64,000 nucleotides of DNA from Acidimicrobiales bacterium. Lineage in GTDB: Bacteria > Actinomycetota > Acidimicrobiia > Acidimicrobiales > DATDAH01. Location: the NCBI GenBank assembly GCA_044221555.1, contig JBGAOY010000003.1:282241-346240 (forward strand), given 5' to 3'. The notes beneath the pieces are model-generated. The model saw only the letters and a list, made by a program, of their open reading frames with translations. It searched no databases and had not been told where the DNA came from. Made by a program: the position numbers and the translations under genes. Each line of letters opens with the position of its first letter. Within the stretch, counting starts at the first letter, position 1. Shown here in pieces: positions 1,521 through 34,720 of this stretch.

Positions 1521-3686
1521 CTAGTGGCTGAAGTCGATGTGGGGCAGGCGACGGTCGAGCCAGCCAGGGATGCGCCAGGCCCGTTCGCCGAGCATCCCGA
1601 GCAGGGACGGGACGAGCATCATGCGGATCACGGTGGCGTCGAGGAGGACGGCGAGGGCGAGGGTCACGCCCAGTTCGGTCGGGGGGATCGGTCCGGTGAC
1701 GCCGAAGGCGACGAACACGACGATCATGATCAGGGCGGCGTTGGTGATGGGCCGGCCGGTGCGGGCGATGCCCTCTCGGACCGCGACCTGGGCGTCACCG
1801 GTGGCGTCGCGTCGTTCCTTGATGGCGGCGAGCAGGAACAGCTGGTAGTCCATCGACAGGCCGAAGAGCAGGGCGAAGAAGAACAGTGGGGCCCAGGCGT
1901 CGACGAAGCCCTGGGGGTCGATCCCGAGCAGCCCGGCGCCGATGCCGTGCTGGAACACGAGGGTGGCGAACCCGAAGCTGGCGGCCACACCCACCAGGTT
2001 GAACAGGATCGAGGTGAGCGCGATCAGCGGGCTTCGGAACACGACGAGCAGCAGCACGAAGGCGACCAGCATGATCGCCGCGATGGCCAGCGGGGCGGAG
2101 CCGAGCAGCGCCGCGGTCAGGTCGGTGTTCTGGGTGCCGGGCCCGCCGAGCCGAGCGCCCGGGGCCACCTCGTCGAGCCCGTCGCGAAGTCGGTGGACGA
2201 GCTGAGAGGTGGCGGCGGAGTCGACGGTGGTCGCCGGGGTGATCCGCACGGCGGTGCGGCCCGAGGCGGCCGGTTCGGACACGACGCGGGCATCGACGAC
2301 ACCGGGGTCGGCGGCAGCGAGCGCGACCACGGCATCGGCTTGGTCAGCGGGCACGGTGGCGAACATGGGGGCCGGCGCACCGTCGCCGAAGTGCTCGACC
2401 GCCGCGTCATAGCCATCGCGGCTCTGGTGGCCGGTGTCGACGACGCCGGCGGCGGGCATCCCGAGGCGCATGCCGAGGGCGGGTGCGGCGAGCAGCAGCA
2501 GCACGCCGAGACCGGTCGCGAGGGTGACGCCGGGCCTGCGCATCGCCGATGCCGTCCAGCGGGCCCAGCGGCCCTCGGCGGCCCGATCCGGATCGTCGTG
2601 GCCTTTGCTCACCAGGACGCGGTCGCCCAGGGCGACGAGCACGGCCGGCAGCAGGGTGAGAGAAGCTGCGGCGGTCGCGACCACGGACAGGATCATCCCG
2701 AGGGCCATTGACCGGAACACCATGACCGGCACCAGGAAGATCGCCGCCAACGACAACACGACGGTCAGCGCCGACAGGAACACGGCCTTGCCCGCGGTCG
2801 CCAGCGTGGCGGCCACCGCGTCGAGTGGGTCCTTGCCGTCCTCGCGCTCCTCCCGGAAGCGGGACACGATGAAGAGGCTGTAGTCGATGCCGACGGCCAG
2901 GCCGATCATCATCGAGAAGTTCATCGACCACACCGACAACGGCGTGACCCCGGTCCCGAGGTGCAGCAGCGCGAAGCCGACGGCGATGCCGGCGATGGCG
3001 AGCAGGAGGGGGAGCCCCGCGGCGACGGCCGTCCCGAAGGCGATGAACAGGAGGATGAGGGTCGGCAGCCCGGAGAGCAGCTCGGCCTTGTGCAGGGCCT
3101 GTTCGTTGAGCTGGTTGAAGTCGTGCCACACGGCCCACTCGCCGGTGGCGTCCGCCTGGGCCCCCGCGGGCAGGCCGATTGCGTCGACGGTGGCCATCAG
3201 TTCGCCGGCGGACTCGGGGAGGTCTGCGTCGGTTCGGGAGGCGAGGTCGACCGGCACCAGCGCGGCGAGCCCGTCCGGGCTGAGCAACCCGGCCTCGGCA
3301 GGTTGGGCGAGCGGATCGATGACCGCCGTCGTGCCAGGGCTGCCCTGCAGGGCGGCGACCAGGTGGCGCAGGCCGGTCGGGTTCTCGGCGATGGGAGTCC
3401 CCTGCCGGTACGCGACGATCGCCGCCTCGGCCCCGAGTTGTGGGAAGTCGCGTCGCAGCTCATCGCGGACCCGTTGGGCGGTGGACCCCTGCGCCTCCCA
3501 ACCAGCGCCCGACAGCGACGAGGTGAGCGTCACGGCGAGCGGAGCGGCAACGACGACGACGAGCGCCCAGGCCAGCAGAACCCGACGTGGGTGGCGGCCC
3601 GAGGCCCGACCGATGCGAGCCAGCAATCCGCCGCCAGACGCGCTGCGCGGCGCGGTGAAGTTGGTGCGATGATTCAGCAAGGTCAT
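1521..3686 (-). CDS. MMPL family transporter
   Basis: GLAVGIDYSLF and FGLSMDYQLF motifs; two TM blocks. Confidence 0.93.
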   Translation of the reverse strand: MTLLNHRTNFTAPRSASGGGLLARIGRASGRHPRRVLLAWALVVVVAAPLAVTLTSSLSGAGWEAQGSTAQRVRDELRRDFPQLGAEAAIVAYRQGTPIAENPTGLRHLVAALQGSPGTTAVIDPLAQPAEAGLLSPDGLAALVPVDLASRTDADLPESAGELMATVDAIGLPAGAQADATGEWAVWHDFNQLNEQALHKAELLSGLPTLILLFIAFGTAVAAGLPLLLAIAGIAVGFALLHLGTGVTPLSVWSMNFSMMIGLAVGIDYSLFIVSRFREEREDGKDPLDAVAATLATAGKAVFLSALTVVLSLAAIFLVPVMVFRSMALGMILSVVATAAASLTLLPAVLVALGDRVLVSKGHDDPDRAAEGRWARWTASAMRRPGVTLATGLGVLLLLAAPALGMRLGMPAAGVVDTGHQSRDGYDAAVEHFGDGAPAPMFATVPADQADAVVALAAADPGVVDARVVSEPAASGRTAVRITPATTVDSAATSQLVHRLRDGLDEVAPGARLGGPGTQNTDLTAALLGSAPLAIAAIMLVAFVLLLVVFRSPLIALTSILFNLVGVAASFGFATLVFQHGIGAGLLGIDPQGFVDAWAPLFFFALLFGLSMDYQLFLLAAIKERRDATGDAQVAVREGIARTGRPITNAALIMIVVFVAFGVTGPIPPTELGVTLALAVLLDATVIRMMLVPSLLGMLGERAWRIPGWLDRRLPHIDFSH

Positions 3687-3689
3687 CGC

Positions 3690-3959
3690 TCAGGCCAGCT
3701 TCGTGAACATCTTCTGGACGTCGCTGATGTCGTAGCCCTCGGCGCGAGACCGCTCCGGGTCCTCGAGGCACCACGTCAAGCCCGCCGCGACAAGTACGAA
3801 CCCGGCCTGTTCGAGCGCCTTGTTGGCCGCCGAGATCTGGGTCACCACATCGCGACAGTCACGCCCCTCGGCCAGCATCTGCTGGATGCCGCGCACCTGA
3901 CCTTCTACCCGGCGCAGGCGCTTGGTCACATCGTCCACCGTGTCCGCTGGAAACTCCAT
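3690..3959 (-). CDS. CsoR/RcnR-family repressor, non-Cu clade (Cys...Gly-x3-Cys)
   Basis: RLRRVEGQVRGI, DCRDVVTQ; AAGLTWC has Gly where Cu-CsoR has His. Confidence 0.88.
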   Translation of the reverse strand: MEFPADTVDDVTKRLRRVEGQVRGIQQMLAEGRDCRDVVTQISAANKALEQAGFVLVAAGLTWCLEDPERSRAEGYDISDVQKMFTKLA

Positions 3960-3977
3960 GGCCCTGCACCGTAGCGG

Positions 3978-4013
3978 TACCCCAGGGGGTATACCAACCT
4001 ACCCCCGGGGGTA
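3978..4013. promoter_or_regulatory. Tandem CsoR-family operators (TACCC-N4-GGGTA)
   Basis: TACCCCAGGGGGTA at 3978-3991 and perfect palindrome TACCCCCGGGGGTA at 4000-4013, just upstream of the repressor. Confidence 0.8.
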
Positions 4014-4367
4014 TATGTCGTGCGGCTGCCCGAGCGGACCTCCGCCTCGGGTTCGCGCTCGTGGACGTGGTCTGCTTCGAGGTGAGCCGTGCTCGTCCCG
4101 TCGCAGTCCAACGTATGAACGCCTTCTGCAACCTGGACGCGTACGTCTCTCCCGCAGGTGTCCATCAAGAGAGCGATTCTCGGAGCAAGTGGTACGACAT
4201 CGCCCAGAGCTGGTGGATGCGCACGAGCGGCTGGGCGGCGGCCGGCGCAGGAGAGCGGCGGGCCAGCAGACCGTCGCTCAGCCTTATGAACGGCGTGGGG
4301 CGTTGCTCATCAGAGCCCAAGAGGCGCGAAGATCGCTCTTGACGACAGTCCGAGGAGGCGCGACCTG

Positions 4368-4928
4368 ATGACGGGGTCCCAAGCGGGGCGGCAGCTGAGC
4401 ACTGCACGGACTGATCGCCGCCGTCTGGGTCTAACTGGCCTTCAACGCGCGAGCGTGATCGTCTTGGTGGCGGCGTCCTTGGCTTGCAGCGGACCGGACT
4501 CATCTGATCGCTCGTCTGGATCAGGGGGTGGCTCGTCGACGTCTACCCATGAAGCTCGGGCCATTAGCGATGCAGTGCGAATCGTGACAGCTGCGATCGA
4601 TGGCCACGCAGTGGTCGAGCACTTCGCCACCAACCCGGTCGGCGGCGAAGGGCGGATCGTGTGCGTCGACGGCGAGGTCGTGCGGCTGTACGTCTTCGCC
4701 TCGGGCCACGATCGCGCAGCAGCGGAGGCTGCCATCGATCCGAATGACCCAAGTCACGTCGGATCAGCCATCGTCGAATGGATCGGCCAGCCCCGTTTCT
4801 GGTCGGTGAGCCATGCGCTCGTGTCCTACTCAGGTGCGAGTGAAGGACTTGTGTCCGACCTCAGGGAGGGCTTCGGTGCCCCGTTCGCAACTGCCCAGGG
4901 CTCCCCTGTCCCTCGAGAATCCTGCTAG
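4368..4928 (+). CDS. Hypothetical lipoprotein
   Basis: Hydrophobic stretch, LAC lipobox-like site, Ser/Gly linker; start uncertain. Confidence 0.6.
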   Translation: MTGSQAGRQLSTARTDRRRLGLTGLQRASVIVLVAASLACSGPDSSDRSSGSGGGSSTSTHEARAISDAVRIVTAAIDGHAVVEHFATNPVGGEGRIVCVDGEVVRLYVFASGHDRAAAEAAIDPNDPSHVGSAIVEWIGQPRFWSVSHALVSYSGASEGLVSDLREGFGAPFATAQGSPVPRESC

Positions 4929-4992
4929 CTGTCTGGGTCCACGCCCTGCGTCGTCTGGTTGCGGGTCTCGGGGGTCATTGCTGTACTCTACC

Positions 4993-5007
4993 GAGACAGT
5001 GTGTCTC
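4993..5007. promoter_or_regulatory. Probable TetR operator
   Basis: GAGACA-GTG-TGTCTC palindrome 45 nt before the tetR ATG; imperfect copy near 5013-5026. Confidence 0.6.
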
Positions 5008-5051
5008 ATACTAGACAGAGCGTTTCACAAAGCTCCGATACGCTGCACTGC

Positions 5052-5621
5052 ATGCCGAAGCTCTGGACCGACACGGTCGATGAGCACCGACAGGCCGTCC
5101 GAGAGGCCACGATCGCGGCGACCGCCACGCTGGTCAGCGCGAACGGCTTGAGCGCCGTGACGATGTCCCGGATCGCGGAGGAGGCAGGTATCGGGCGGGC
5201 GACGCTCTATCGCTACTTCAGCGACGTCGACGAGATCCTCCTGGCCTGGCACGAGGGTCAGGTCACTAGCCACCTCGAGCAGCTCCGGGCGGTCGGCGCT
5301 CGCTTCGACGATCCGAAGGATCAGCTCAGGGCAGTGCTCGAGACGTATGCCTTGCTTGCCCAGCAGCGACCCACGGGCGGACTGGCCGCTGTCTTGCATG
5401 ACGGATCCCACATGGGTCGAGCGCAGCACGAGCTCCTGGACTTCATCCGTGACATGCTCGATCGTGCGGCTCGTTCCGGGTCGGTCCGCACGGATGTCTC
5501 GGCGGGCGAGCTCGCCAGCTACTGCCTGCACGCCTTGAGCGGAGCTGAACAGTTGAGGTCGAAGGCGGCCGCTCGGCGATTGGTGGACGTCGTCATCTCA
5601 GGCCTTGCGCCCGCTCGGTAG
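5052..5621 (+). CDS. TetR/AcrR family regulator
   Basis: VTMSRIAEEAGIGRATLYRYF HTH; start taken at MPKLW. Confidence 0.92.
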   Translation: MPKLWTDTVDEHRQAVREATIAATATLVSANGLSAVTMSRIAEEAGIGRATLYRYFSDVDEILLAWHEGQVTSHLEQLRAVGARFDDPKDQLRAVLETYALLAQQRPTGGLAAVLHDGSHMGRAQHELLDFIRDMLDRAARSGSVRTDVSAGELASYCLHALSGAEQLRSKAAARRLVDVVISGLAPAR

Positions 5622-5624
5622 GCC

Positions 5625-6977
5625 ATGGACGGACCGTTCACCCTCGAGGAACTCGCCGCACAGACCAATGTCGCGCCGATCCGGATCCGCGAGTGGGTCG
5701 AGCTCGGGCTCCTCTCTGCGGGCGGGGATGGTCGGTACGACCTCGACGCCGCCGAGCGGGTTCGCCTGTTGCGCTTCACCTCCGACCGTGGCGTCACGGC
5801 GGAGGCGATAGCCGAGCTGTCGGTTCGGCGCGACGACGACATCTTGGGTCGCTATGTGGATCTGCTCGGTGGCGGTCGCCAGGTCGTCGGGGGGCTCGCG
5901 GACGCTGCGAACGATCTCGGTCTCGAACCCGCCCTCCTCCGCAGGATGTGGACCGCCAGTGGCTTCGGGGCGCAGTCGGAGGTGTTCGCCGAGGATGTGC
6001 CCGCCATTCAGGCGTTCACGACGGCACTCGATGCCGGGCTCCCACCGGAAGCTGTGATCCAGATGGTCCGGGTCTTCGGCGATGCCCTCGGTCGCGTTGC
6101 AGATGCCGAGAACCGGCTGTTCCACTTCTACGTGCACGAACAGCTCCGCTCCGAGGGCATGTCGCACCGCGAGGCGTTCGAAGCCACGGAAGGTGCTTCC
6201 GAGGCCCTGCTGCGCATCGTCGAGGACACTGTCCTCTACTTCCACCGCAAGGCATGGCACCGGGCGCTCCGAGAAGATCTGCTGCTCCACCTGGTCGACG
6301 ACCTCGCTTCGCCAGACCGACCCGTTGGTCAGCTTCGCATCGCCGTCCTGTTCGTCGACCTGGCGAGCTTCACCACGCTCACCGACACCATGGGTGACGA
6401 AGCCGCAGCCGAGGTCCTCGACCGGTTCTCCGATCTCGTACGCGACGCGGCAGCCGAGTGCGACGGCCGGGTGCTCAAGCAGATCGGTGACGAGTTCATG
6501 CTGGTGTTCCCGAACGGCCGAGCCGCAGTGCGCTGTGGCCTGCGAGTCGCTGAGCACGTCGCCTTGGAACAGCACTTCCCGGCCGTTCGCATGGGTGCTC
6601 ACGTCGGGCCTGCGTTGTTTCGTGACGCCGACTACCTCGGCGCCACCGTCAACCTCGCCGCCCGCATCGTCGCCGAGGCCGACAGGAGCCAGTTCCTGGT
6701 GTCGTCGGCTGTGCGCGACGACGCGGAGGCCATGGACTGGGTGCGTTTCGAAGCCATCGGCGCTCGAGCCGTCAAGGGGGTGTCCGAGCCCGTTGCCCTC
6801 TTCGTGGTCGCGACGGATCGACCCCTGGCCCGTCAGATCGATCCGGTCTGTGGAATGGAGCTCGATCCCGACATCGCCACCGTCCGCCTGGACCACGTGG
6901 GCACCACCGTGTGCTTCTGCTCGTCGTCCTGTCGCGACCTGTTCCTGGAGGACCCGAATCGCTACGCCGCGCGCTGA
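5625..6977 (+). CDS. Class III adenylate cyclase with N-terminal MerR-like HTH and C-terminal YHS domain
   Basis: FVDLASFT, KQIGDEFM, DYLGATVNLAAR catalytic motifs; DPVCGM...FCSSSCRDLF YHS motif. Confidence 0.9.
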   Translation: MDGPFTLEELAAQTNVAPIRIREWVELGLLSAGGDGRYDLDAAERVRLLRFTSDRGVTAEAIAELSVRRDDDILGRYVDLLGGGRQVVGGLADAANDLGLEPALLRRMWTASGFGAQSEVFAEDVPAIQAFTTALDAGLPPEAVIQMVRVFGDALGRVADAENRLFHFYVHEQLRSEGMSHREAFEATEGASEALLRIVEDTVLYFHRKAWHRALREDLLLHLVDDLASPDRPVGQLRIAVLFVDLASFTTLTDTMGDEAAAEVLDRFSDLVRDAAAECDGRVLKQIGDEFMLVFPNGRAAVRCGLRVAEHVALEQHFPAVRMGAHVGPALFRDADYLGATVNLAARIVAEADRSQFLVSSAVRDDAEAMDWVRFEAIGARAVKGVSEPVALFVVATDRPLARQIDPVCGMELDPDIATVRLDHVGTTVCFCSSSCRDLFLEDPNRYAAR

Positions 6978-7024
6978 CCAGGGTGCGGCGCCCTCACGTC
7001 CGCAACGTTCACAAGGAGGATTGA

Positions 7025-7204
7025 GTGCAGGACGACGAGATCAGGTACGAGCAGCTCTGTCCCCGATGCGGTGACCGCATCGCCGGCGATGACCTTGACG
7101 TCGTTGCCGATGCAGTGGTCGCGCACGCCGCCGAAGCCCACGGCCACCGCGTCGATCGGCACGTCATCGTCGCCCACCTTGAAGGACGCCGCCCCGACGA
7201 GTAG
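7025..7204 (+). CDS. 59-aa CxxC/HxxxxH small metal-binding protein (DUF1059-like); not in the ORF track
   Basis: AAGGAGG RBS, GTG start, MQDDEIRYEQLCPRCGD...AHAAEAHGH...E*. Confidence 0.7.
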   Translation: MQDDEIRYEQLCPRCGDRIAGDDLDVVADAVVAHAAEAHGHRVDRHVIVAHLEGRRPDE

Positions 7205-7334
7205 AGGACTTGAAACCAGCGGTTGCCAAGCACGACGGTCGCAGCGCGTTCTCGCGCCGTCACGAGCTCGCTCGCATCCTGACCACTGATGCCATCTCGA
7301 GGGCTGGCCGCTCGCTTGAACCAGGGGTCTGCTG

Positions 7335-9320
7335 TCACGGTTCGTGGTCGGAGGTGAGCAGGTCGGCCGCAGTCGGAGCGAGGGGCAGCAGGGCGGGGTC
7401 GGCGAGCCCCGCGAAGATCCGGGCAACGAGGGGGGCGGCGACGTCTCCGCCGTAGCCGGCTTCCTCCAACACTGCGGCCGCCACGTAGCGAGGCGGCTGA
7501 TCCGGCAGCACGGGCCCGAATCCTGCGAAGACCGAGGTGTTGGCTTTGCCGCTCACCTGAGCGGTGCCGGTCTTGCCCGCGATGGGCCAGCCGGCGGGGT
7601 TCGTCGCGAAGGCCTGGCTGGCGGTGCCCTCGGGTCCTGATGTGACACGCACCAGTCCGTCCACGAGCGGCTGGCGGATGGCCGGGGGCAGGTCGAGCCG
7701 CCCGGCCATCACCGGGTCCGCTCTCTCGGAGACGTCGTCGCCGGGCCCGTCGGTGTCCGCGCCCTCAACGGCGAGGCGCGGTCGCCAGACGGTCCCTCCG
7801 TTGGCGATCGCAGCGTAGGCGTTGGTCAACTGGAGAGGGGTGACGAGGAGATCGCCTTGTCCGATGGCCAGGTTGATGTTGTCCCCGCTGACCCAGTCGC
7901 CGTAGGGGAACGCCTCGGGCATCTCGCGGTTGTTCCTGGCCTTGCGCTCCGGTGTCGGAACGATGCCAGTGGCCTCGAAGGGCAGCTCGACGCCGGTGGG
8001 CTCGCCCAACCCGAAGTCACGGGCGACGCTCTGCAGGGCTTCGTCGCCCACTCGGTCCCGCTGCAGCCACAGGATGTCGCCGATCTCGTAGTAGTAGAAG
8101 TCGCTGGACACCTCGAGTGAGCGGCGCAGGTCTACGAGGCCATGGGCCGTGGACTCGTCGTTGCGGAACACACAACTGCCCCCCTCACAGTTCTGGGCCG
8201 TGTACTCACCCGGGTCCTCCACCGAGGCTTCGGGCGTCCGGATCCCGCTCCGCAGTGCAGCCACTGCGGTGATGGGCTTGAACGTCGAGCCGGGTGCGTA
8301 CTGGCCCTGGATGGCGCGGTTGTTCAGCGGCAGTTCGCCTCCAGGGTCGGTGAGGGTGGCGTAGTCCGACTCGCTGATGCCGCTGGTGAAGGTGCCGGGG
8401 TTGAACGTGGGGAACGACGCCATGGCCACGACGTCGCCGTTGTTCGGGTCGAGCACGACGACCGACCCTGCCGCTGCCGGGAACTCGGGACCGCGGGCGC
8501 CTTCGAGGCTGGCCGCCAACTCGCTCTCCGCGAGCGATTGCACGTTCACGTCGAGCGTGGTGATCAGATCCCGGCCCGGGACCGGTCGGAATGTCTCGTC
8601 CTCGATGGTGCTGACCACGTTGCCGCTGGCGTCGACCTCGTAGGTGGTCCGACCCGGTGTGCCACGCAGCTGATCCTCGTAGGCCAGTTCGAGGCCTGTG
8701 CGGCCGATCTCGTCGCCGGGCTCGTAGTCGAGCGGGTTGGCGCCGTCGGTGTCCTCATCGATCTGGGCGAGGCGTTCCTCGGAGATCGATCCCGTGTAGC
8801 CCAAGACGTGGGCGGCGAGCGATCCGTACGGGTACCGGCGGGCCACGGTGCGCCGGACGTCGACACCGGGCAACTCGTCGCTGCGTTCGAGCACGCCGAC
8901 CATGACGCTGTCCGAGATGTCGGTGAGGACCGGCACTGGTGCGAACCTGTCGATGAGGTTGTCCTCGATCGTTCCAGCGAGTGTGTCAGCCGTGATGGGT
9001 GCTTCGGGCGTAGTGAGCTGAGCGGCTAGAGCGGTGAGGACCCGACGTCGTGCCTCGGTGGCATCAGGGAGCTCGTTGAGATCCACGACGACCTGCATGA
9101 CCGGCACGCTGTCGACGAGGACGGTTCGGTTGCGGTCCAGGATTCGGCCGCGCGGAGCCTGCTCGTGGACGACTCGCAGCCGGTTCGAAGTCGCGGCTCT
9201 CTCGAGGTCGTCCTGATCGAGGACCTGCAACGTGAACATGCGCACCAACAACGCCACGAACAGCGACACGGCGACGACGCCGACGACGTTGAGCCGGAGC
9301 CCGACTCCCTCACCGGGCAC
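7335..9320 (-). CDS. mrdA: Penicillin-binding protein 2 (class B)
   Basis: N-terminal TM, APRGRILDRN, GSTFK, SSD and KTGTAQ motifs. Confidence 0.92.
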   Translation of the reverse strand: MPGEGVGLRLNVVGVVAVSLFVALLVRMFTLQVLDQDDLERAATSNRLRVVHEQAPRGRILDRNRTVLVDSVPVMQVVVDLNELPDATEARRRVLTALAAQLTTPEAPITADTLAGTIEDNLIDRFAPVPVLTDISDSVMVGVLERSDELPGVDVRRTVARRYPYGSLAAHVLGYTGSISEERLAQIDEDTDGANPLDYEPGDEIGRTGLELAYEDQLRGTPGRTTYEVDASGNVVSTIEDETFRPVPGRDLITTLDVNVQSLAESELAASLEGARGPEFPAAAGSVVVLDPNNGDVVAMASFPTFNPGTFTSGISESDYATLTDPGGELPLNNRAIQGQYAPGSTFKPITAVAALRSGIRTPEASVEDPGEYTAQNCEGGSCVFRNDESTAHGLVDLRRSLEVSSDFYYYEIGDILWLQRDRVGDEALQSVARDFGLGEPTGVELPFEATGIVPTPERKARNNREMPEAFPYGDWVSGDNINLAIGQGDLLVTPLQLTNAYAAIANGGTVWRPRLAVEGADTDGPGDDVSERADPVMAGRLDLPPAIRQPLVDGLVRVTSGPEGTASQAFATNPAGWPIAGKTGTAQVSGKANTSVFAGFGPVLPDQPPRYVAAAVLEEAGYGGDVAAPLVARIFAGLADPALLPLAPTAADLLTSDHEP

Positions 9321-9333
9321 GCAGCCACTTTAC

Positions 9334-9350
9334 TACTACAAACTGTAGGA
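9334..9350. promoter_or_regulatory. BlaI-type operator upstream of PBP2
   Basis: TACTAC-AAACT-GTAGGA, 14 nt from the start codon. Confidence 0.7.
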
Positions 9351-9404
9351 AATCGAGTCGAGCCCCAGCTGTGCGGTAGTCGCGGGATGTTCACGGTCAG
9401 TTGC

Positions 9405-10547
9405 TTACGGGCGGCCGTAGCCATAGATCGAGCCTGGATAGCCGATGCTCCGAACCGACACCACCGAGCCCGAGTTCAGCGCATCGACGATCTGGCCTCC
9501 GCCGATGTACATGGCGACGTGGTGGATGCCGGAGGCACTGGGCCCGTAGAAGACGAGGTCGCCTGGTTGTAGATCGCTCGCTGACACCCGTCGGGTCACC
9601 GAGTACTGCATGCGGGAACTGTGTGGGAGGGATCGCCCTGCTTGAGCCCATGCCCACATCATGAGTCCGGAACAGTCGAAACCGGTCGACGGACTGGCTC
9701 CACCCCATTGGTACGGGACGCCCCGCATGCTCATGGCGGCGTCGACGGCGCCCTGTGCGCCTGTGGTCGGTGGTGGGGGCGCGGGCGGATCGACCGGCGC
9801 GTTGCCGGTACCGCCGCTGCCAGACCCATCGGGGGCGTCCAACGGCGGCTGGTCGGCGGCCCGAGCCGGCGCCTGGCGAGCGGCGGCGTCGACGGCGGCC
9901 TGGCGCGCAGCGGCCTCTTGTTCACGCTGCTGATCGATGAGTTGCTGCAGCTCTGCGTCGATCTGCGACTGAAGTGCCACCTGCTCGTCGATGGCCTGCT
10001 GCGCTTCGTTGGCAGACTGGTCGATCTGTGCGACGAGGGTCTCGGCTGCTTGACGGTTGTCCTCGAGGTCCGTCACGCGATCGCTGACGTCTTGCTCCGT
10101 GGCGTCCAACTGTTCGATGAGCTGTGCGCGGTTACCGGTGACTGAGTCGAGGTAGCCGAGTCGGATGGGCATCTCCCGATCGTTGCGGCTGTCGATGGCG
10201 ACGGTGAGCGCAGACGTGTCGGTGCCCCCCAGATACGCCCGAACCGCGTACGTCTGGAGTTCAGAGCGACGTTGATCGCGCTGGCGGACGGTGTCGTCCA
10301 GTCGGGCCTGAGCCTGGCCGATGCGTTCCTGGACCTGTGTCAGCTCAGCTCGAGCCTCGTTGGCGCGGTCGCCCAGCCTCGAGTAGCGGGCGCCGAGCTC
10401 ATCGAGCCGGGCCGCAACTTCACGGGCCTCCGCACGTTTGTCATCGATCGGCGACTGACTCGACGCGGGCGTGGAGCTTCCAAGCGCCGTCCCGATGAGC
10501 ACGCTGACGATGACAGACGTGTACCACCGCGCCCGAGGCGTGTGCAT
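9405..10547 (-). CDS. Secreted coiled-coil NlpC/P60 peptidoglycan endopeptidase
   Basis: Signal peptide, coiled coil, PYQWGG...FDCSGL...HHVAMY. Confidence 0.92.
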   Translation of the reverse strand: MHTPRARWYTSVIVSVLIGTALGSSTPASSQSPIDDKRAEAREVAARLDELGARYSRLGDRANEARAELTQVQERIGQAQARLDDTVRQRDQRRSELQTYAVRAYLGGTDTSALTVAIDSRNDREMPIRLGYLDSVTGNRAQLIEQLDATEQDVSDRVTDLEDNRQAAETLVAQIDQSANEAQQAIDEQVALQSQIDAELQQLIDQQREQEAAARQAAVDAAARQAPARAADQPPLDAPDGSGSGGTGNAPVDPPAPPPPTTGAQGAVDAAMSMRGVPYQWGGASPSTGFDCSGLMMWAWAQAGRSLPHSSRMQYSVTRRVSASDLQPGDLVFYGPSASGIHHVAMYIGGGQIVDALNSGSVVSVRSIGYPGSIYGYGRP

Positions 10548-10675
10548 GAACGAGACTCCTCCCGGCGATGGTACGAACAGTGGTCGAACGGCCGTGTGCG
10601 CCGCGAATGCAGCCAGCGCCGGCTCTTTCGAAAGCTGAGCCCGGCGGGTTCACCCTAGAGAAACCTTACCGAATC

Positions 10676-10692
10676 TGCGACACGGTGTCGTA
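10676..10692. promoter_or_regulatory. BlaI-type operator upstream of NlpC/P60
   Basis: TGCGAC-ACGGT-GTCGTA; exact reverse complement of 11306-11322. Confidence 0.65.
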
Positions 10693-10818
10693 ATCCACCG
10701 CAGGACCCCGCACCCGCACACGCGAACCATGGTGGTGACTGTCGTTCCTGCCCGGTACTCACGTCGACGTAGCTTCCGCTGACACTCCAGTGCCACGGCT
10801 CGCTCGCCGGGTGGGCGG

Positions 10819-11241
10819 TCATCGACTGGTTGCGGATGTCGTCCTCGTGGACGGGTCCACGGAAGCGACCGTCGTCGGTGGCACCGTCGGCGTGACACCG
10901 GCGCTGCCTCCCCCCTCCCCGACCACGCAATCGGTGTAGATCGCCACGAGGTCATCCGGAAGCGACGCGTTCGGGTCGTCGGCCAGGCGCTGGTCGATGC
11001 GGGCGAATCGGTCGTACGGGATCTCCCGCTCGAAGCGCCGGTACGCACAACGGCATACCGGTCGAAGGCCGTCGCCTCCCTGTGCCACGCAGGTGTCCAC
11101 GAAGTTCCGTTCGACCTCAGCGTTGTAGTCGGTCGGCTTGGACGTCTTGCTGCAGGCGGCGAGCACGAGGGTGAGGACGACGAGCGCGGCCCATGCCCAC
11201 CTGGCTTGACCCGCCGATCGCCGTGGCTGCGGTTCGGACAC
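10819..11241 (-). CDS. Hypothetical Cys-containing lipoprotein
   Basis: LAAC lipobox, C...CRC, Thr/Pro tail. Confidence 0.7.
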   Translation of the reverse strand: MSEPQPRRSAGQARWAWAALVVLTLVLAACSKTSKPTDYNAEVERNFVDTCVAQGGDGLRPVCRCAYRRFEREIPYDRFARIDQRLADDPNASLPDDLVAIYTDCVVGEGGGSAGVTPTVPPTTVASVDPSTRTTSATSR

Positions 11242-11251
11242 GGCCGCAGAC

Positions 11252-11322
11252 TATTACAGCTTGTAGTGGCAGTGGCGACACCAGGTTCGGGACCAAGGAC
11301 CCTGGTACGACACCGTGTCGCA
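11252..11322. promoter_or_regulatory. Two BlaI-type operators in a divergent promoter region
   Basis: TATTAC-AGCTT-GTAGTG (11252) and TACGAC-ACCGT-GTCGCA (11306). Confidence 0.65.
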
Positions 11323-11360
11323 GTCGATGCTTGATGACAGACCGAGTGAAAGGGCCGATC

Positions 11361-11582
11361 ATGGACGCCAAGCACATCGTCAAGCACCACCTCCTCATTC
11401 CCGCCGCGGTGGTGGGCGTACTTCTCCTCGTCGGAGCACCGCTCAACGTCGCCGTGGTCGCCGGCATGATGACCGGCTGCCTCAGCATGGTGTTCATGAT
11501 GGGCAGCTCGTCGGATGACCATGCCCACACCGACGATCGGTCCGCATCGGATGCGGAACGGGTGCATCGGAGCGAGGGCTGA
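11361..11582 (+). CDS. DUF2933-like small membrane protein
   Basis: Two TM segments, GCLSMVFMMG, His-containing tail. Confidence 0.65.
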   Translation: MDAKHIVKHHLLIPAAVVGVLLLVGAPLNVAVVAGMMTGCLSMVFMMGSSSDDHAHTDDRSASDAERVHRSEG

Positions 11583-11587
11583 GCGGG

Positions 11588-12535
11588 GTGGCAGCGCACC
11601 ACGCACCCACCACCAACGTTCGGGCGCTCAAGATCAGCTCGCTGCTAATCTTCGTCTACTTCTTCGCCGAGATACTCGTAGCGCTCGTCACCGGCAGCCT
11701 TTCGTTGCTGGCGGACGCCGCGCACGAGCTGTCGACGGTCGTCGCCATCTCGATCTCACTGATCGCGATGCGCCTCGCTCGGCGCCCCGCCACCCCGCAA
11801 CGAACCTTCGGCTTGCTTCGTGCCGAGGCGCTCGCCGCACTCCTGAACGGGGCACTGCTCGTCGGGATGGCGGGCTTCATCATCATCAGAGGCATCCAAC
11901 GACTGGCCGACCCGGTGGAGATGGAGCCGGGTCCGATGTTCGCGATGGCCATCGGTGGCATCGGGCTCGAGATCGCCTCGCTCGCGATCATGTACCGCGG
12001 TCAGAAGGAGGACCTCAACATCCGAGCCTCCTTCTGGCATGTGATGAACGCGTTCCTCGGGAGCGTGGCCGTGATCATCGCCGCCACCTTCATCGCAGTG
12101 GCGGACATCTACGAGGCCGACACGTGGGCCGGGATGATCTTCGCCGTCGTGTTGCTCTACGCCGCGTACGGCATCGTCCGGGACGCCTTGCGGATCCTGG
12201 TCGACGCGACTCCCTCGGACACCGATCTCGAGCAGGTGGCGGCGGGCCTGGAAGCGATCCCGGGCGTCCGTTCAACTCACCATCTGCACTCGCGAGTCGT
12301 CACGGGTCGGCTCCGGACCTTCAGCGGGCACGTGGTCGTCGATTCGACGAGTGACGCCATGGAAGTGCTTGCTCAGGCCAAGGACCTGCTCGACACGACC
12401 TACGGGTTCTCGCTGTCAACCATCCAGATCGAGCCGCAGGGGTTCGCAGAAGGCGACCCCCCGAGCATCGAGTACCAGCGCCCCGCCGAAGTCAGCCTTC
12501 AAGGGCACCAGGACCATCGCCCGTCAGGCGCGTGA
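11588..12535 (+). CDS. Cation diffusion facilitator (CzcD-like)
   Basis: SLSLLADAAHE, TFGLLRAE, NIRASFWHV, TIQIEP. Confidence 0.9.
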   Translation: MAAHHAPTTNVRALKISSLLIFVYFFAEILVALVTGSLSLLADAAHELSTVVAISISLIAMRLARRPATPQRTFGLLRAEALAALLNGALLVGMAGFIIIRGIQRLADPVEMEPGPMFAMAIGGIGLEIASLAIMYRGQKEDLNIRASFWHVMNAFLGSVAVIIAATFIAVADIYEADTWAGMIFAVVLLYAAYGIVRDALRILVDATPSDTDLEQVAAGLEAIPGVRSTHHLHSRVVTGRLRTFSGHVVVDSTSDAMEVLAQAKDLLDTTYGFSLSTIQIEPQGFAEGDPPSIEYQRPAEVSLQGHQDHRPSGA

Positions 12536-12991
12536 GTGGATGATGAAGTCGGCGTTGCTCTGCTGATACAAGCTGAAGGCCATCAGCGCGACGGCGAGGA
12601 AGGTCCAGCCCCACCAGGCCGGACGTCGTACGTGCAGGTTCACCCACCACCCGGTCGCGAGGCCAGCGGCAAGGCGGACGACACCCAGCACTCCGACTGC
12701 CACCAGAGCGAGGCTCAACGGGTTGTAGCGCCAGGCGAGGGCGAAGTCGCCGCGGGCGGCGGCAGTGGTGCCGCGGGTGAGCCCGCACGTCGGCTCGACC
12801 CAGCCGAACGCATGCGTTGGCATCGGCGTGTCGAAGGGAAATCCCCCGATCAGGGCCAGCGCCGCCGCGGTGAGACCGCCGCCGATGGCCAGCACGGTCA
12901 GCCAGCGCATGCGATCGGTGGTCTCAACGTGGAGGACCCCTCGGCGGACCGACGGCTCACGGCGCGTGTCCATGCAGCCATCATCGCTCAC
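12524..12991 (-). CDS. DUF2752-like membrane protein
   Basis: PTCGLTR...AWRYNPL. Confidence 0.7.
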   Translation of the reverse strand: MSDDGCMDTRREPSVRRGVLHVETTDRMRWLTVLAIGGGLTAAALALIGGFPFDTPMPTHAFGWVEPTCGLTRGTTAAARGDFALAWRYNPLSLALVAVGVLGVVRLAAGLATGWWVNLHVRRPAWWGWTFLAVALMAFSLYQQSNADFIIHSRA

Positions 12992-13063
12992 GCTGGGGGG
13001 TGAACGACCGACAGGCTGTCGTAGGCCGGGACGGCCGTGCCGATCGAGCTATGGGAGTGCCCG

Positions 13064-14488
13064 ATGACAAGAGCGACCCAGCAGGCCTCGGACACGAACG
13101 GACGAAGTTTCCCAACCCGTGTTGCGGTTCTGGGAGCGGGCATTGCCGGGCTGGTTGCCGCCACCGAGCTGCGACGACGAGGCGTCGAGGTGGTCGTGTA
13201 CGAGGCGGGCGCCCGCGTCGCCGGCATGGCGGAGAGCCACCACGACCCCGACGGGTTCAGCTACGACACGGGCGCCCACTTCATCACGAACCGGCTCGCG
13301 GCGGCCATCGGCGTGGAGGATCGCTGTCGCACGGTCCGTCACTACGGCGAAGCGGTGTTTCTGGCGGACGGGTCGGTGGCGTCGTATCCGTTCGGCTTGT
13401 TGCGACGGGGCCGGTTCGTGGGATCAGCGATGGCCGCGAAGGTGGCGGGTTTGCGCGCCAGTCCGATTTCTCGGACGGCTACCGAGTTCTTCCGGGCTGA
13501 GTACGGCACGGCCATGGCTGACGATGTCGTGTTGCCGCTGATCGAGGCGTGGTCCGGGGCACCAGGCGATCGTCTTTCTGCTGCCGTCGGGCAGAAGATC
13601 CCGACCAGCATCGCGCAGACGATGTGGCTCAAGGCGGCGACGAGGGTGACCCGGCGCGCCGTCGCCATCGGCTACTGCGGGGAGATGCCACAGAGCATGC
13701 ACGTGTGGCACGTGTACCCCGAAGGCGGAGTCAGTCTGCTGTGCGAGACCCTTGCTGCCGATCTGGGCGACGCCGTGCACCTCAGCAGTCCCGTCGAACG
13801 AGTCATCGTGCAGGACGAGCGGGTGGTCGCCGTGGACGTCGGCGGCCAGCGTGAGGAGGTCGACGGGGTGGTGAGCACCGCGCCGATCAACGTGCTCCCG
13901 CGGCTCGTTGAGGGATCAGAGCGGCTCGAGCGGTTCTCCGCCTTTCGGTACCGGCCGATGGTGTTCGCGAACCTCCGCTTCGCCGGGCGCAACCTCCTCC
14001 CCGACGTGGTCATGTGGGTCCCCGATCGGGGCCAGCCCTTCTTCCGCCTCACCGAGGCTCCGATGTCGATGCCTTGGCTGGCACCAGAGGGCAAGACGAT
14101 GATCACCGCGGATCTCGGGACCACCGTCGGATCCGAGATCTGGGACATGGAGCCTGACGAGCTGGGCGAGCGCTGCCTGGATGCGATGGAGACGCTGGTA
14201 CCGGGGCTGCGCGACCGCTACTTGGGTTGCCGTGTCGTCAAGACCCCGATCGCGTACCCGGTCTTCTCGACCGACTATGAGGAGGCACGGGCAGACCTGG
14301 TCGCGAACGGCACCGGGGTGGAGGGACTGCTGAGCGTCGGTCGCAACGGCGAGTTCGACCACATCCTCATGGAGGACATCTACTGGCGCACGAAGCGGCG
14401 TATCGAGCGCTGGTTGGACCGACGCACGCCCGACAACGAGCAGCGCCCCGGACCATTGGCCACGGCTCAGATGGGTGGCCAGCCGTAG
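13064..14488 (+). CDS. FAD-dependent oxidoreductase (HemY/amine oxidase superfamily)
   Basis: VLGAGIAGL dinucleotide-binding motif, DTGAH, GRNGEF. Confidence 0.8.
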   Translation: MTRATQQASDTNGRSFPTRVAVLGAGIAGLVAATELRRRGVEVVVYEAGARVAGMAESHHDPDGFSYDTGAHFITNRLAAAIGVEDRCRTVRHYGEAVFLADGSVASYPFGLLRRGRFVGSAMAAKVAGLRASPISRTATEFFRAEYGTAMADDVVLPLIEAWSGAPGDRLSAAVGQKIPTSIAQTMWLKAATRVTRRAVAIGYCGEMPQSMHVWHVYPEGGVSLLCETLAADLGDAVHLSSPVERVIVQDERVVAVDVGGQREEVDGVVSTAPINVLPRLVEGSERLERFSAFRYRPMVFANLRFAGRNLLPDVVMWVPDRGQPFFRLTEAPMSMPWLAPEGKTMITADLGTTVGSEIWDMEPDELGERCLDAMETLVPGLRDRYLGCRVVKTPIAYPVFSTDYEEARADLVANGTGVEGLLSVGRNGEFDHILMEDIYWRTKRRIERWLDRRTPDNEQRPGPLATAQMGGQP

Positions 14489-15195
14489 CGAGCGAACCAG
14501 GTCTGGACGGGCAGTAAGACGCGATCCCAGGCGCCGGTGATGAAGGCCATGCCCACCGCGATCATCAGCACACCACCGGCGCGCTCCACGGCGCGGCCGT
14601 GGCGCCGGAACCAGGCGACCGATCCACTGAGGCGTTGGTAGCCCATTGCGATGAGCAGGAACGGGATGCCCAGGCCCAGGGAGTACAGCAGCAGCAGCAC
14701 CCCTCCGGCGGCGACCGACCCTGATGGCGCCGCCAGGGCAAGGATCGTGGCCAGCACGGGGCCGACGCACGGGGTCCACCCGAACGCGAAGGCCATCCCG
14801 AGGGGAAAGGCTCCCAGGGGCCCCGGTCGCACACGAGCAAGGTCGAGCCGGCGCTCCCGGTCGAGCCAGGGCAGCCGCAGCACGCCGAGCGCGGCGAGTC
14901 CAGTGACGATGATCAGCACCCCGCCGGCCCTGGTCAGCACGGGGAGCTGTCGGATGAGCGCGACGCCGATGGCCGACGCGGTCACCCCGAGCGCCGTGAA
15001 CACGGCGCTGAACCCGGCCACGAAGAGCAACGACGAACGCAACATCAGTCCACGCGAACGTCCCTCGATCGGCGCGGTCACCGGCAGCGCAGAGACGTAG
15101 GAGACGTAGCCGGGGATCAGGGGGAGCGCGCACGGGCTCGTGATCGACAGGAGCCCCGCCACGACCGCTGCGGCCGGCAGGAGGGGACCGCTCAT
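14467..15195 (-). CDS. ccdA: Cytochrome c biogenesis/thiol transporter CcdA
   Basis: SPCALPLIPGY and WTPCVGP. Confidence 0.9.
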   Translation of the reverse strand: MSGPLLPAAAVVAGLLSITSPCALPLIPGYVSYVSALPVTAPIEGRSRGLMLRSSLLFVAGFSAVFTALGVTASAIGVALIRQLPVLTRAGGVLIIVTGLAALGVLRLPWLDRERRLDLARVRPGPLGAFPLGMAFAFGWTPCVGPVLATILALAAPSGSVAAGGVLLLLYSLGLGIPFLLIAMGYQRLSGSVAWFRRHGRAVERAGGVLMIAVGMAFITGAWDRVLLPVQTWFARYGWPPI

Positions 15196-15922
15196 GGCCC
15201 GGATGGTGCAACGGGCCGAGGAGATGGCGGTGCGACCTGGAGGGGAGGACGGCGCAGGCACAGCCCCACGAATCCCCGGTCGCGACGACGGCGATGGCGA
15301 GCGACTCACGATGGGGGCGGGTGAGGCCGCCGCCGAGCGCCGGCAACCAGAAGCTGGCCACCGCCCGCACGAGGGCGAGCCCGGCCACCGAGCCGACGAC
15401 GACGTGCACCGGCGCGCGGTGACGCCACGGCCACGCTGCTGCGCCGACTGCTCCGACGGCCACCGCCATGAGCAACCCCATGGGCACTACTCGCTGCGTG
15501 AGGCCCGGTGGAACGAGCCCGACCGGCGAGGCAGGACCGAAACAGCCGTCGCGCAGCGCGCAGCCCGCCTCCCAGGTCGCGTAGCCCCACAGCGCCAACG
15601 GCGCACCACAGGCCAGGACGGTCCACAGGGACCGGCCGCTCTTGGCCGCCCTGACGGCGACGACGGCTGCGCCCGCAGTGGCGCCGGCCCAGAACTCGAC
15701 GCCGCCGCGCACGCTCAGCATGCTCCGCAGGTCGCCGAGACCCGTTGGGTCGTCGAACGCGACCGCGACGATCCTCGCGGTGGCCAGCCCTGCCGCGACC
15801 GCCCAGAACCCGATGTCGAGCACATAGGCGACGTCCTCGTCGTCGCGGCCGGCGCGCCTGGCGATCAGGAACGGGACGACCGCCGCGAGCAGGGCGCTGG
15901 AGGCGAAGCGCAGGTCGATCAC
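15192..15922 (-). pseudogene. Lgt-family membrane protein with a frameshift near 15275 (real or assembly error)
   Basis: GLATARIVAV and RGGVEFW resemble Lgt; shifting frame in the GGGG run restores a TM end and a TGA overlapping the ccdA ATG. Confidence 0.6.
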
Positions 15923-16422: not shown

Positions 16423-16436
16423 CCCGATGAACCAAC

Positions 16437-16453
16437 TACGACGTACCGTAGGA
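16437..16453. promoter_or_regulatory. BlaI-type operator upstream of tlpA-lgt-ccdA
   Basis: TACGAC-GTACC-GTAGGA. Confidence 0.7.
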
Positions 16454-16539
16454 GTTTACCGCCAGATCAACGACGGGCTATCGTCGCCAAGCGACGCGAC
16501 CGGTTCAGTTCAGACTGACGAGAAGCGTCTCGAACGAGT

Positions 16540-17789: not shown

Positions 17790-17899
17790 CGGCGCATCGT
17801 AGCGGTCGAAAGCGGCTGCCTGAATGCGCGAGTGCGTGCGATGCTCAACCGGGACCTGCTCAGTTTGTGGAGCTCGGTCGCCGTACAGTGGACTGCTGC

Positions 17900-17916
17900 T
17901 ACTACGTCCCGTCGTA
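17900..17916. promoter_or_regulatory. BlaI-type operator between blaI and the cupredoxin gene
   Basis: TACTAC-GTCCC-GTCGTA. Confidence 0.75.
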
Positions 17917-17929
17917 TCCAGGAGCCACC

Positions 17930-18469: not shown

Positions 18470-18556
18470 TCGCCGCCAGAACCAGGTTCTGCATCATGTA
18501 GTAGGGAGTGGCGCCCTCTGATGGTCCGGGGTACCTCGGCCGCGCATCGGGATCGA

Positions 18557-34718: not shown

Positions 34719-34720
34719 CC

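Follow-up and report, generated by a model that had tools for sequence, protein, structure and literature searches.

The stretch of DNA analyzed here (the window, 64,000 nucleotides of contig JBGAOY010000003.1 from an Acidimicrobiales bacterium) carries on its forward strand, directly behind a TetR-family gene, a gene for a predicted soluble class III adenylate cyclase that ends in a YHS domain and begins with what looks like the helix-turn-helix (HTH) of a MerR-type regulator. This HTH belongs to a tandem pair of MerR-like units, of which it comes first, and the pair builds, together with the long helices 141-176 and 181-227, a regulatory domain of the type found in the cyclase Rv1264 of Mycobacterium tuberculosis. 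Nucleotide coordinates are those of the window and residue numbers those of the 450-residue cyclase. The features at the locus are as follows:

4959..5621, forward strand: TetR-family gene with TetR_N and TetR_C_43 domains, probable ATG start at 5052, ending 3 nucleotides before the cyclase ATG
5625..6977, forward strand: cyclase gene, ATG start, 450 amino acids, predicted soluble class III adenylate cyclase
5637..5828, forward strand: MerR-like winged-HTH unit 1, residues 5-68, with helices 7-14, 18-26, 40-54, and 59-68
5883..6068, forward strand: MerR-like unit 2, more degenerate, residues 87-148, lying within the Rv1264-type regulatory domain
5751..6320, forward strand: Rv1264-type regulatory domain, predicted to be autoinhibitory and dimerizing, residues 43-232, including long helices 141-176 and 181-227
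6330..6812, forward strand: class III catalytic domain, residues 236-396, matching PF00211 and Ma1120
6813..6836, forward strand: linker of 8 residues (397-404), poorly conserved (mean 0.34)
6837..6974, forward strand: YHS/TRASH-type domain, residues 405-450, with D406, C409, C432, and C436 as proposed metal ligands

Along the chain, unit 1 is followed by unit 2, a helical hairpin, the catalytic domain, the linker, and the YHS domain. Pfam gives five overlapping signals on the protein: MerR_1 (PF13411) at residues 5-65 with 25.0 bits (cut-off 21.6), Ad_Cy_reg (PF16701) at residues 43-193 with 27.8 bits, slightly below its cut-off of 28.6, Guanylate_cyc (PF00211) at residues 239-386 with 32.3 bits (cut-off 21.9), GGDEF, a related fold that cross-hits residues 236-304, and YHS (PF04945) at residues 405-449 with 36.5 bits (cut-off 30.3). 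An earlier interpretation made from the letters alone (the sequence-only reading) had placed a MerR-like HTH and a three-cysteine YHS module at the two ends of this open reading frame (ORF), and had put the gene directly behind a TetR gene; the Pfam scores above cut-off and the spacing of 3 nucleotides agree with this. Absent from it was the Rv1264-type regulatory domain, 190 residues between the HTH and the catalytic domain.

A word-indexed search retained 837 proteins at E ≤ 1e-5 among 8000 candidates scored, and the best 120 were aligned; fractions of 120 refer to this alignment. These relatives comprise 411-478 amino acids, are 44-55% identical to the cyclase, and nearly all contain the same domains; those that have a name in their sources, metagenome bins of Actinobacteria, Acidimicrobiales, and Jiangellaceae, are labelled "YHS domain-containing protein" or "adenylate cyclase". 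Among proteins of known structure, Rv1264, Rv1900c, and Ma1120 come closest in sequence. In a search against sequences of solved structures, Ma1120 of M. avium matches the catalytic domain with E 4e-21, and residues 42-396 align as a single stretch to the Rv1264 holoenzyme (1y10; phmmer E 3e-17, identity about 23%). Alignment to Rv1264 and Ma1120 assigns D245 and D289 as metal-binding aspartates, K285 and D336 as the ATP-specifying pair, N343 and R347 as the transition-state residues of the NxxxR motif, and R322 as phosphate-binding arginine, and these catalytic letters are identical in all three proteins; that the metal aspartates, the Lys/Asp pair, and the NxxxR motif are intact, as had been claimed from the letters, is therefore confirmed by alignment. 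K285, D336, and A346 correspond to the K/D/A triad mutated in the Ma1120 "KDA to EGY" entries of the PDB. Of the 120 relatives, 118 retain the complete set of six catalytic residues, and the remaining two have I at position 343. In Foldseek, the catalytic domain matches Ma1120 with a target TM-score of 0.90-0.93 and a root-mean-square deviation (rmsd) of 1.1-1.7 Å. Judged from these sequence and fold comparisons, the protein is a predicted class III adenylate cyclase: Pfam score, fold, and the six residues all agree with this class.

The YHS domain presents its putative ligands in the pattern D-x2-C-x22-C-x3-C (D406-P-V-C409 ... F-C432-S-S-S-C436). D406 is invariant in the alignment of relatives, and C409, C432, and C436 are all kept in 119/120, the exception being P0026, a protein of 411 residues without the tail. 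A fourth cysteine, C430, is not conserved among the relatives. The spacing C409-x22-C432-x3-C436 fits the pattern C-x19-22-C-x3-C that is said to have been described for YHS/TRASH modules by Ettema in 2003. Four YHS domains with the same motif are encoded in the whole genome, three of them within the window; the three besides that of the cyclase are carried by a P-type ATPase, an ATPase of the ATP-binding cassette (ABC) type, and an XdhC-family protein. The last of these, in which the genome's fourth YHS forms the C-terminus, is encoded on contig C15 (L004:718-1638).

A cyclase-YHS enzyme has been studied biochemically, namely MpAC of M. phlei with 233 amino acids (Linder, 2015, PLoS One; PMC4626032). 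Full-length MpAC is inactive with Mg2+ and is turned on by 1-10 µM Cu2+, copper stimulates it sixfold in the presence of Mn2+, and Zn, Fe, Cr, Co, and Ni are without effect. Copper only inhibits the isolated catalytic domain, so that there is no stimulation without YHS, and the copper effect on MpAC is reversed by ethylenediaminetetraacetate (EDTA). D178, C181, C204, and C208 have been proposed as ligands of MpAC, its linker consists of 8 residues, the linkers of cyclase-YHS enzymes measure 8-11 residues, and all such enzymes are assigned to class IIIc (Linder, 2015). The present enzyme is probably of the IIIc type too, an assignment that follows this statement and the nearest solved relatives. 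The 26 cyclase-YHS sequences compiled in that study range from 216 to 473 amino acids, so that long forms were already in the set; all members are said there to share a plain cyclase-YHS architecture, and the N-terminal half of the long forms is left undescribed (Linder, 2015). Since YHS-dependent activation by Cu2+ was demonstrated in that work, metal-gated synthesis of cyclic AMP (cAMP) is a published concept. The proposal, made from the letters, that the cyclase reports metal status through cAMP is thus still the best reading, given the likeness to MpAC and the copper context, but the idea behind it is not new. By analogy to MpAC, the cyclase itself would be expected to respond to copper.

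For the N-terminal half, residues 1-235 were modelled separately (mean per-residue confidence, pLDDT, 93.2) and compared with solved structures. The best match is the regulatory domain of Rv1264 (2ev1; Z 10.6, 159 residues, rmsd 4.1 Å), which together with the phmmer (3e-17) and Foldseek (1e-20) matches establishes homology to the N-terminal domain of Rv1264 despite the Pfam score below cut-off. In the precomputed domain table, PF16701 is carried by most relatives and PF28507 is listed for some. Unit 1 by itself superposes on SoxR (VIA-align; Z 9.8, rmsd 1.9 Å over 66 residues), on the DNA-binding domains of TnrA (Z 9.2), GlnR (Z 9.1), PbrR (Z 8.8), and TipAL (Z 8.6), on MerR (Z 8.1, 28% identity), and on CueR (Z 7.6). 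The DNA-binding domains of this family match residues 1-80 of the model, and residues 1-75 have their winged-HTH fold at about 2-3 Å rmsd, with values near 2 Å for SoxR, PbrR, and MerR. It also matches two structures that are not DNA complexes, CbpM (3ucs_B; Z 9.7) and the C-terminal domain of Rv1828 (5ydc, residues 126-186), the latter superposing on residues 3-63 with Z 8.1 and rmsd 1.4 Å, and positions 109-163 of the NCBIfam FtsR profile weakly match residues 5-59 (E 0.006). Profile-profile comparison of residues 3-66 with residues 87-148 by hhalign gives a probability of 94.3% (E 1.1e-7, 61 columns) and identifies these segments as two copies of one unit; our own profiles for the HTH and regulatory (REG) segments cross-match each other as well. 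Sequence and fold together suggest that the Rv1264-type regulatory domain descends from a tandem-duplicated MerR ancestor. Elsewhere in the same genome (G000:C11:69471-69959; L090/L095), a frame of 277 amino acids gives two tandem MerR_1 matches, the second degenerate and acidic (net charge -4), and this FtsR-like layout resembles the tandem units of the cyclase.

Four histidines stand out within the long helices of the regulatory domain. H167, H171, H207, and H222 are kept in 119, 118, 113, and 120 of the 120 close relatives, respectively. Across a broader set of 44, the corresponding counts are 31, 28, 22, and 29 of the 33 YHS-bearing members and 9, 8, 9, and 9 of the 11 YHS-less ones. Because they are retained in YHS-less relatives too, they belong to the regulatory module and not to what the YHS domain does; a second metal site linked to YHS, which they might have formed, is ruled out by their being equally kept in both groups. 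They are candidate proton sensors. According to their titles, the PDB entries 1y10/1y11 and 2ev1-3 cover pH-dependent states and bound oleic acid for Rv1264, and fatty-acid activation of Rv2212 is among the points recorded in PMC12505454. By analogy, autoinhibition of the cyclase may depend on pH or on a fatty acid.

The AlphaFold2 model of the full-length cyclase (pLDDT 95.3, pTM 0.88) contains no low-confidence linker. Its top Foldseek matches are the Rv1264 holoenzyme structures 1y10/1y11 (E 1e-20 to 1e-19), with a target-normalized TM-score of 0.69 to the active state (1y11) and of 0.48-0.50 to the inhibited state (1y10). Prediction with two copies of the cyclase gives an ipSAE of 0.71, and the best of three controls gives 0.00. 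This mark is reached by 20 of 30 solved same-chain pairs and by 1 of 23 solved single chains, counts that hold only roughly because our own alignment was used. The runs have at least 81% of their contacts in common, with a partner pLDDT of at least 78. Within the regulatory domain, the predicted interface involves residues 48-81, 107-172, and 191-227, and within the catalytic domain residues 266-287; pairing is tightest between 148-159 of one chain and 203-211 of the other, and H167, H207, and H222 fall inside the interface. The head-to-tail dimer expected for class III cyclases is thus predicted, and the result may only reflect likeness, since the dimer of Rv1264 is already solved.

The sequence-only reading had further considered that the cyclase might act while bound to DNA, and this could mean that the protein is a transcription factor and a cyclase at the same time, or that it makes cAMP at a promoter. 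Unit 1 is indeed a complete winged HTH that superposes on DNA-bound domains of the MerR family; helices 1-2 and the wing (residues 7-40) lie outside the named predicted dimer interface and may be exposed, and Rv1264, with no known DNA binding, lacks the very N-terminus. However, the segment matching MerR_1 has a net charge of -4 in the cyclase, whereas charges from 0 to +5 and a basic R-R-Y wing are found in the genome's seven best MerR_1 matches. Among the relatives, the mean charge of unit 1 is -2.9, with 6/120 at +1 or more, and that of unit 2 is -6.8, a charge of at least +1 being reached by none of the 120. The recognition helix starts with an acidic residue (E or D) at position 19 in 77/120; the wing residues R37 and Y38 are found in 24/120 and 8/120, respectively; and positions 16-20 and 31-38, which form the recognition helix and the wing, are variable. 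The positions that are invariant or nearly so (W24, L27, G28, L29, R45, R47, R55, and G56) look like core or packing positions. Unit 1 is the least conserved folded part of the protein, its mean column maximum being 0.51, whereas the catalytic domain reaches 0.68 and the remainder of the regulatory domain 0.62. With respect to MerR-type regulators, an N-terminal winged HTH is present and a basic, conserved DNA-contact surface is not; nor do residues 59-148 contain the long coiled-coil dimerization helix and the C-terminal effector region of that family, as helix 59-68 is followed by the short helix 73-80 and then by unit 2 (87-148). In addition, the unit is duplicated in tandem and rigidly packed into the regulatory domain. 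MerR-like folds without a DNA-related role appear among its structural matches, and the MerR-like modules of the CbpM complex and of the Rv1828 C-terminal domain are not known to bind DNA. Given the acidic character of unit 1 and the lack of conservation at its DNA-contact positions, DNA binding by the N-terminal unit is unlikely, and the notion of a cyclase working on DNA is not upheld; by its sequence the unit probably does not bind DNA, and we rate this alternative as quite improbable. A more far-reaching version, in which unit 1 binds DNA, the enzyme is a promoter-tethered cAMP synthase gated by copper and pH, and the Rv1264-type domain is a fossil of a tandem-duplicated MerR regulator, has a slim chance as a whole. 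The ancestry that it invokes is the one suggested above; its DNA-binding half is disfavored by charge and conservation. If true, a single protein, as a one-component factor, would both bind DNA and generate a second messenger.

In contigs of one genome per species, 366 stretches encode a relative of the cyclase, and locus counts refer to the best 80 of them. By query range, 37 of these are full-length, 30 are short cyclase-YHS forms, 10 lack YHS and retain the N-terminal module and the catalytic domain, and 3 are partial. Full-length loci occur in Acidimicrobiia, Pseudonocardia, Mycolicibacterium/Mycobacterium, Chloroflexota, Binatia, and single proteobacterial bins. A quick catalytic-domain tree places the short forms (29/30) opposite the forms with a regulatory domain (47 rows), with an SH-aLRT support of 91. 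A search of 1.84 billion representative proteins with the N-terminal module gives no more than 489 matches at E ≤ 1e-3. According to our profiles, the best 148 of these comprise proteins whose cyclase domain is accompanied by YHS (32 + 4) or is not (21 + 18), besides HTH-REG or REG pieces that are mostly fragments; among those of the 148 long enough to show an output domain, none other than a cyclase was found. Within a set of 31 genomes, i.e., the present one and 30 relatives, the long form occurs only in the present genome and in G013, from a sister genus (50% identity). It is absent from the seven other genomes that share the genus of the present one, four of which possess a short cyclase-YHS instead. 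The long-form gene is therefore accessory in this genome. Two loci combine forms with and without YHS. In an Actinobacteria bin (L056), a YHS-less Rv1264-type cyclase (4765-5874, reverse strand) lies divergently beside a short cyclase-YHS (6001-6669, forward strand), and in a Chloroflexia bin (L044) a YHS-less Rv1264-type paralogue (4632-5990, forward strand) directly precedes a long YHS form (5941-7362, forward strand). Heterodimers of YHS-less and YHS-bearing chains are conceivable, because these enzymes work as dimers.

The cyclase gene lies at the edge of a copper/metal island of about 40 kb (1521..44705). In the related loci, CsoR-family genes are present in 9 of 80, and six of the seven CsoRs that were aligned have the C...H-x3-C set, which we take to be a Cu(I) signature. 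A gene for CsoR, a P-type ATPase, or a multicopper oxidase is found within two genes of the cyclase in 8 of 28 short-form loci, two of them identical; in L049 and L057, both of the short form, a gene for a cupredoxin-HMA ATPase overlaps the start of the cyclase. Among the 36 long-form loci, six (L005, L008, L015, L020, L021, and L027) have metal genes no more than two genes away, and L041, with a CsoR match beside the cyclase, is a seventh. The copper link is clear for the whole family and for the window, and it is not universal for the long form. A different arrangement is found in L009, L011, L023, L026, L029, L030, L032, L033, L034, L037, and L040, where the cyclase directly follows acpS (encoding holo-acyl carrier protein synthase), often with thyX upstream and with nnr (YjeF/Carb_kinase) downstream.

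Taken together, the explanation that we favor, and regard as probable, is that of a cytosolic, homodimeric class III (IIIc-type) cyclase which perceives copper through its YHS domain and pH or lipids through its N-terminal domain and reports copper stress. Architecture, catalytic residues, fold, predicted dimer, and genomic context come from the present analysis, and activation by Cu2+ through YHS comes from a relative. According to this proposal, the YHS domain would bind copper through D406, C409, C432, and C436 and thereby raise catalytic activity as in MpAC. The N-terminal 235 residues, with two MerR-like units and the helical hairpin, would dimerize and keep the catalytic domains arranged for either inhibition or activity, responding to pH as in the solved relative Rv1264 or to a fatty acid as in its close paralogue, and protons might be sensed by the four histidines, which are nearly invariant and lie in or close to the predicted dimer interface. 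The resulting cAMP might be read by cyclic-nucleotide (cNMP)-binding proteins, as the genome contains 16 cNMP-binding domain matches alongside 20 cyclase-domain matches. A role in reporting copper stress seems likely because the gene belongs to an accessory cassette behind TetR at the edge of the copper/metal island, and the contributions of the N-terminal domain and of the whole enzyme to physiology would be those just outlined.

Several points weigh against this proposal, and part of them would fit an enzyme in which YHS is a constitutive, structural module similar to a zinc ribbon that senses nothing, while control is exerted by the N-terminal domain (pH or lipid) and by TetR-controlled expression. 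Related TRASH folds can hold a structural metal, as does L24e with Cd in the crystallized ribosome, and in the crystal of toluene-4-monooxygenase the YHS is without a metal ligand (Linder, 2015; PMC4626032). No metal gene lies within two genes of the cyclase in 29 of the 36 long-form loci: 11, mostly from Chloroflexota, show the acpS-cyclase-nnr housekeeping arrangement without a metal gene, and a further 18 show neither metal nor acpS-nnr context. Also, relatives without YHS keep the N-terminal module (21 HTH-REG-CHD proteins among the 148 matches, and the 10/80 loci mentioned above). On the other hand, the effect of YHS in MpAC is copper-specific and reversible by EDTA (PMC4626032), cyclases with YHS adjoin genes for CsoR, Cu-ATPases, or multicopper oxidases far above apparent chance, and elsewhere in the genome YHS is attached to a P-type ATPase, an ABC ATPase, and an XdhC-family protein, so we consider a purely structural YHS unlikely. 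Further points against the favored copper- and pH/lipid-responsive enzyme are that short cyclase-YHS relatives are merely 34-42% identical over the shared part, that copper in the cytosol is Cu(I) whereas the published activation was an in vitro effect of Cu2+, that in the phmmer alignment Rv1264 lacks the four histidines proposed as pH sensors, that the nearest CsoR-family gene lacks the histidine of the C-H-C ligand set (C35/G60/C64), and that an interplay of the two regulatory modules is purely inferential.

Besides the TetR and cyclase genes, the surroundings and the copper/metal island contain the following features:

1521..3686, reverse strand: MMPL transporter gene, separated by 3 nucleotides from the CsoR-family gene that precedes it
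3690..3959, reverse strand: CsoR-family repressor gene (PF02583, 81.2 bits), 1.7 kb upstream of the cyclase
4993..5007, no strand: perfect palindrome GAGACA-gtg-TGTCTC, 45 nucleotides upstream of the probable TetR start
7025..7204, forward strand: previously unlisted ORF of 59 amino acids with a GTG start, a strong AAGGAGG 5 nucleotides upstream of it, beginning 48 nucleotides past the cyclase stop
11588..12535: CDF transporter
14467..15309: DsbD_TM protein (DsbD/CcdA)
15919..16422: thioredoxin-like gene
16540..17427: M48 peptidase
17867..18469: plastocyanin-like gene
20539..21531, reverse strand: CbtA-family cobalt transporter
21530..21727, reverse strand: cobalamin riboswitch (RF00174, 92.4 bits), directly upstream of the cobalt transporter gene
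22239..23768: multicopper oxidase
24901..26774: GAF-histidine kinase and LuxR-type response regulator
27265..30168: P-type ATPase with cupredoxin and YHS domains
32185..34718: two FtsX/MacB_PCD permease genes of a MacB-type ABC system
34502..35560: ATPase subunit of the MacB-type ABC system, ending in YHS
36970..38480: ApbE and ferric-reductase-like protein
39161..39445: canonical CsoR-family gene
41928..44705: P-type ATPase with HMA domain

The YHS on the ABC ATPase of the MacB type looks like an unusual fusion with a metal module. The island also contains genes for a DUF2752 protein (12524..12991, reverse strand) and a type-11 S-adenosylmethionine-dependent methyltransferase (19809..20438, reverse strand); DUF2752 genes adjoin YHS-cyclases in L020 and L055, and type-11 methyltransferase genes do so in L012, L016, L021, L056, L060, L063, L072, L074, and L078.

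Because only 3 nucleotides separate them, the TetR gene and the cyclase gene are probably co-transcribed. A wider link between the two, which their adjacency had seemed to offer, does not hold, as the adjacency is not conserved across related loci: by tblastn the TetR of the window matches 2 of the 80 loci, in neither case next to the cyclase, and it is rejected as a conserved partner; unrelated TetR genes adjoin the long-form cyclase in 2 of 36 loci (L010 and L015 only). TetR thus probably controls expression of the cyclase in this genome only. The palindrome at 4993..5007 is a candidate TetR operator. It is unique in the window, with a chance expectation of 0.21 and at least one match in 18 of 100 shuffles, and is not significant alone. 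A scan for inverted repeats from 4850 to 5150 yielded only a 10-nucleotide palindrome within the TetR gene, scans for promoters and terminators from 3600 to 7400 gave 0 and 0 sites, and Rfam, run over the whole window, found nothing near the cyclase and only the distant cobalamin riboswitch.

The repressor encoded at 3690..3959 has G where the six other aligned CsoRs have His and may sense something other than Cu(I); its C-x-C-type set without His presumably resembles that of the persulfide sensors of the CsoR family. This feature bears on yet another explanation, in which the YHS cysteines act as a thiol/redox switch for oxidants or persulfides and copper is merely the oxidant. Three conserved cysteines, to which C430 is added in the present cyclase, the character of the nearest CsoR-family gene, and the thioredoxin and DsbD genes within the island would fit such a switch. 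C430, however, is not conserved, and MpAC that had been pre-incubated with Cu2+ and then received EDTA gave no activity, the fluorescence change being reversed by EDTA as well (Linder, 2015; PMC4626032). We give little credence to a redox switch and retain copper binding by the YHS domain as the preferred reading.

The remaining neighbors of the cyclase gene were rejected as conserved partners, with the genes for PBP2 and for a 186-residue lipoprotein-like ORF matching none of the 80 loci, MMPL 1, and NlpC/P60 2 of them, and comparison within 1.5 kb on either side of the relatives' loci found no shared sequence. In L072, from an Ilumatobacteraceae bin, a short cyclase-YHS has, two genes away, an MMPL gene 65% identical to that of the window. 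At the DNA level, the MMPL, CsoR, PBP2, and NlpC/P60 genes within 1500-10600 of the window recur on different contigs, with 71-77% identity, in four genomes from within the genus, and no match to the region of about 4000-7300 was found in these same four genomes. The ORF at 7025..7204 encodes a CPRC motif and five histidines and weakly matches DUF1059 (E 0.0095; 16.6 bits, below the cut-off of 21.1). As a conserved partner of related cyclases it was discarded, the best tblastn match having E 0.045. Seven short contigs from four sludge or activated-sludge metatranscriptome libraries (X1, X2, X3, and X5, from two studies) match the window without mismatches at 4351..4674, 6387..6558, and 6972..7272. 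One of them, with 172 nucleotides (6387-6558, X3), lies inside the cyclase gene, most of which is uncovered, and contigs of three of the four libraries, from two studies, span 6972-7272 without mismatch. Such contigs cannot show transcription, strand, or co-transcription; because they match without differences, the organism or a near-identical strain is present in the sludge libraries.

The concept of a YHS-cyclase and the Rv1264-type domain are each already known. In the literature searched, no earlier description was found of the combination of YHS with an Rv1264-type domain, of the complete unit 1, or of the histidine set, nor of a tandem MerR-like build of the Rv1264-type domain; for this last point, which concerns the fold, the primary papers on the structure of Rv1264 (Tews, 2005; Findeisen, 2007) may be relevant. 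The long form is widespread, with at least 120 protein clusters in Acidimicrobiia, Mycobacteriaceae, Pseudonocardia, Chloroflexota, Binatia, and others, whereas YHS gating has so far been tested in one short enzyme only. As the long form joins a copper module to a regulatory domain of the pH/lipid type, it would be a natural two-input cyclase for the study of signal integration. Copper and acidity rise together in many habitats. The four histidines would be obvious candidates for the unexplained pH sensor. Finally, the case of unit 1 is a warning that not every MerR-like HTH should be read as a DNA-binding domain.

Among known systems, MpAC resembles the present cyclase in its class III (IIIc) catalytic domain with the six canonical residues and in its C-terminal YHS, with identical D/C/C/C spacing and an identical linker length of 8 residues; unlike MpAC, which has no such extension, the cyclase possesses 235 additional N-terminal residues comprising the two MerR-like units and the helical hairpin. 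With Rv1264 and Rv2212 it shares the regulatory and catalytic domains, which align over 42-396, and the homodimer predicted to form through the regulatory domain. In contrast to the present enzyme, Rv1264 has neither a YHS domain nor the start of unit 1, its alignment beginning at model residue 19 by structure and at residue 42 by sequence. Residues 1-75 share the winged-HTH fold of the MerR family (SoxR, CueR, MerR, PbrR, TnrA/GlnR, and TipAL; Z 7.6-9.8), but the unit of the cyclase is acidic, has no coiled coil or effector site, and is directly followed by a second copy. The MerR-like modules of the FtsR/Rv1828 C-terminal domain and of CbpM superpose on unit 1, yet these proteins are a transcription factor and a chaperone modulator, respectively, and not enzymes. 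A combination of a DNA-binding-type fold with a TRASH/YHS cysteine module is reportedly also found in archaeal copper-linked HTH-TRASH regulators of the CopT/CopR type from Sulfolobus, described by Ettema in 2003 and in later work. In those regulators the output is said to be transcription and the HTH to belong to another family, whereas the output here would be cAMP, and the likeness, compared by the cysteine module only, lies in the joining of such a fold to a putative copper module within one protein.

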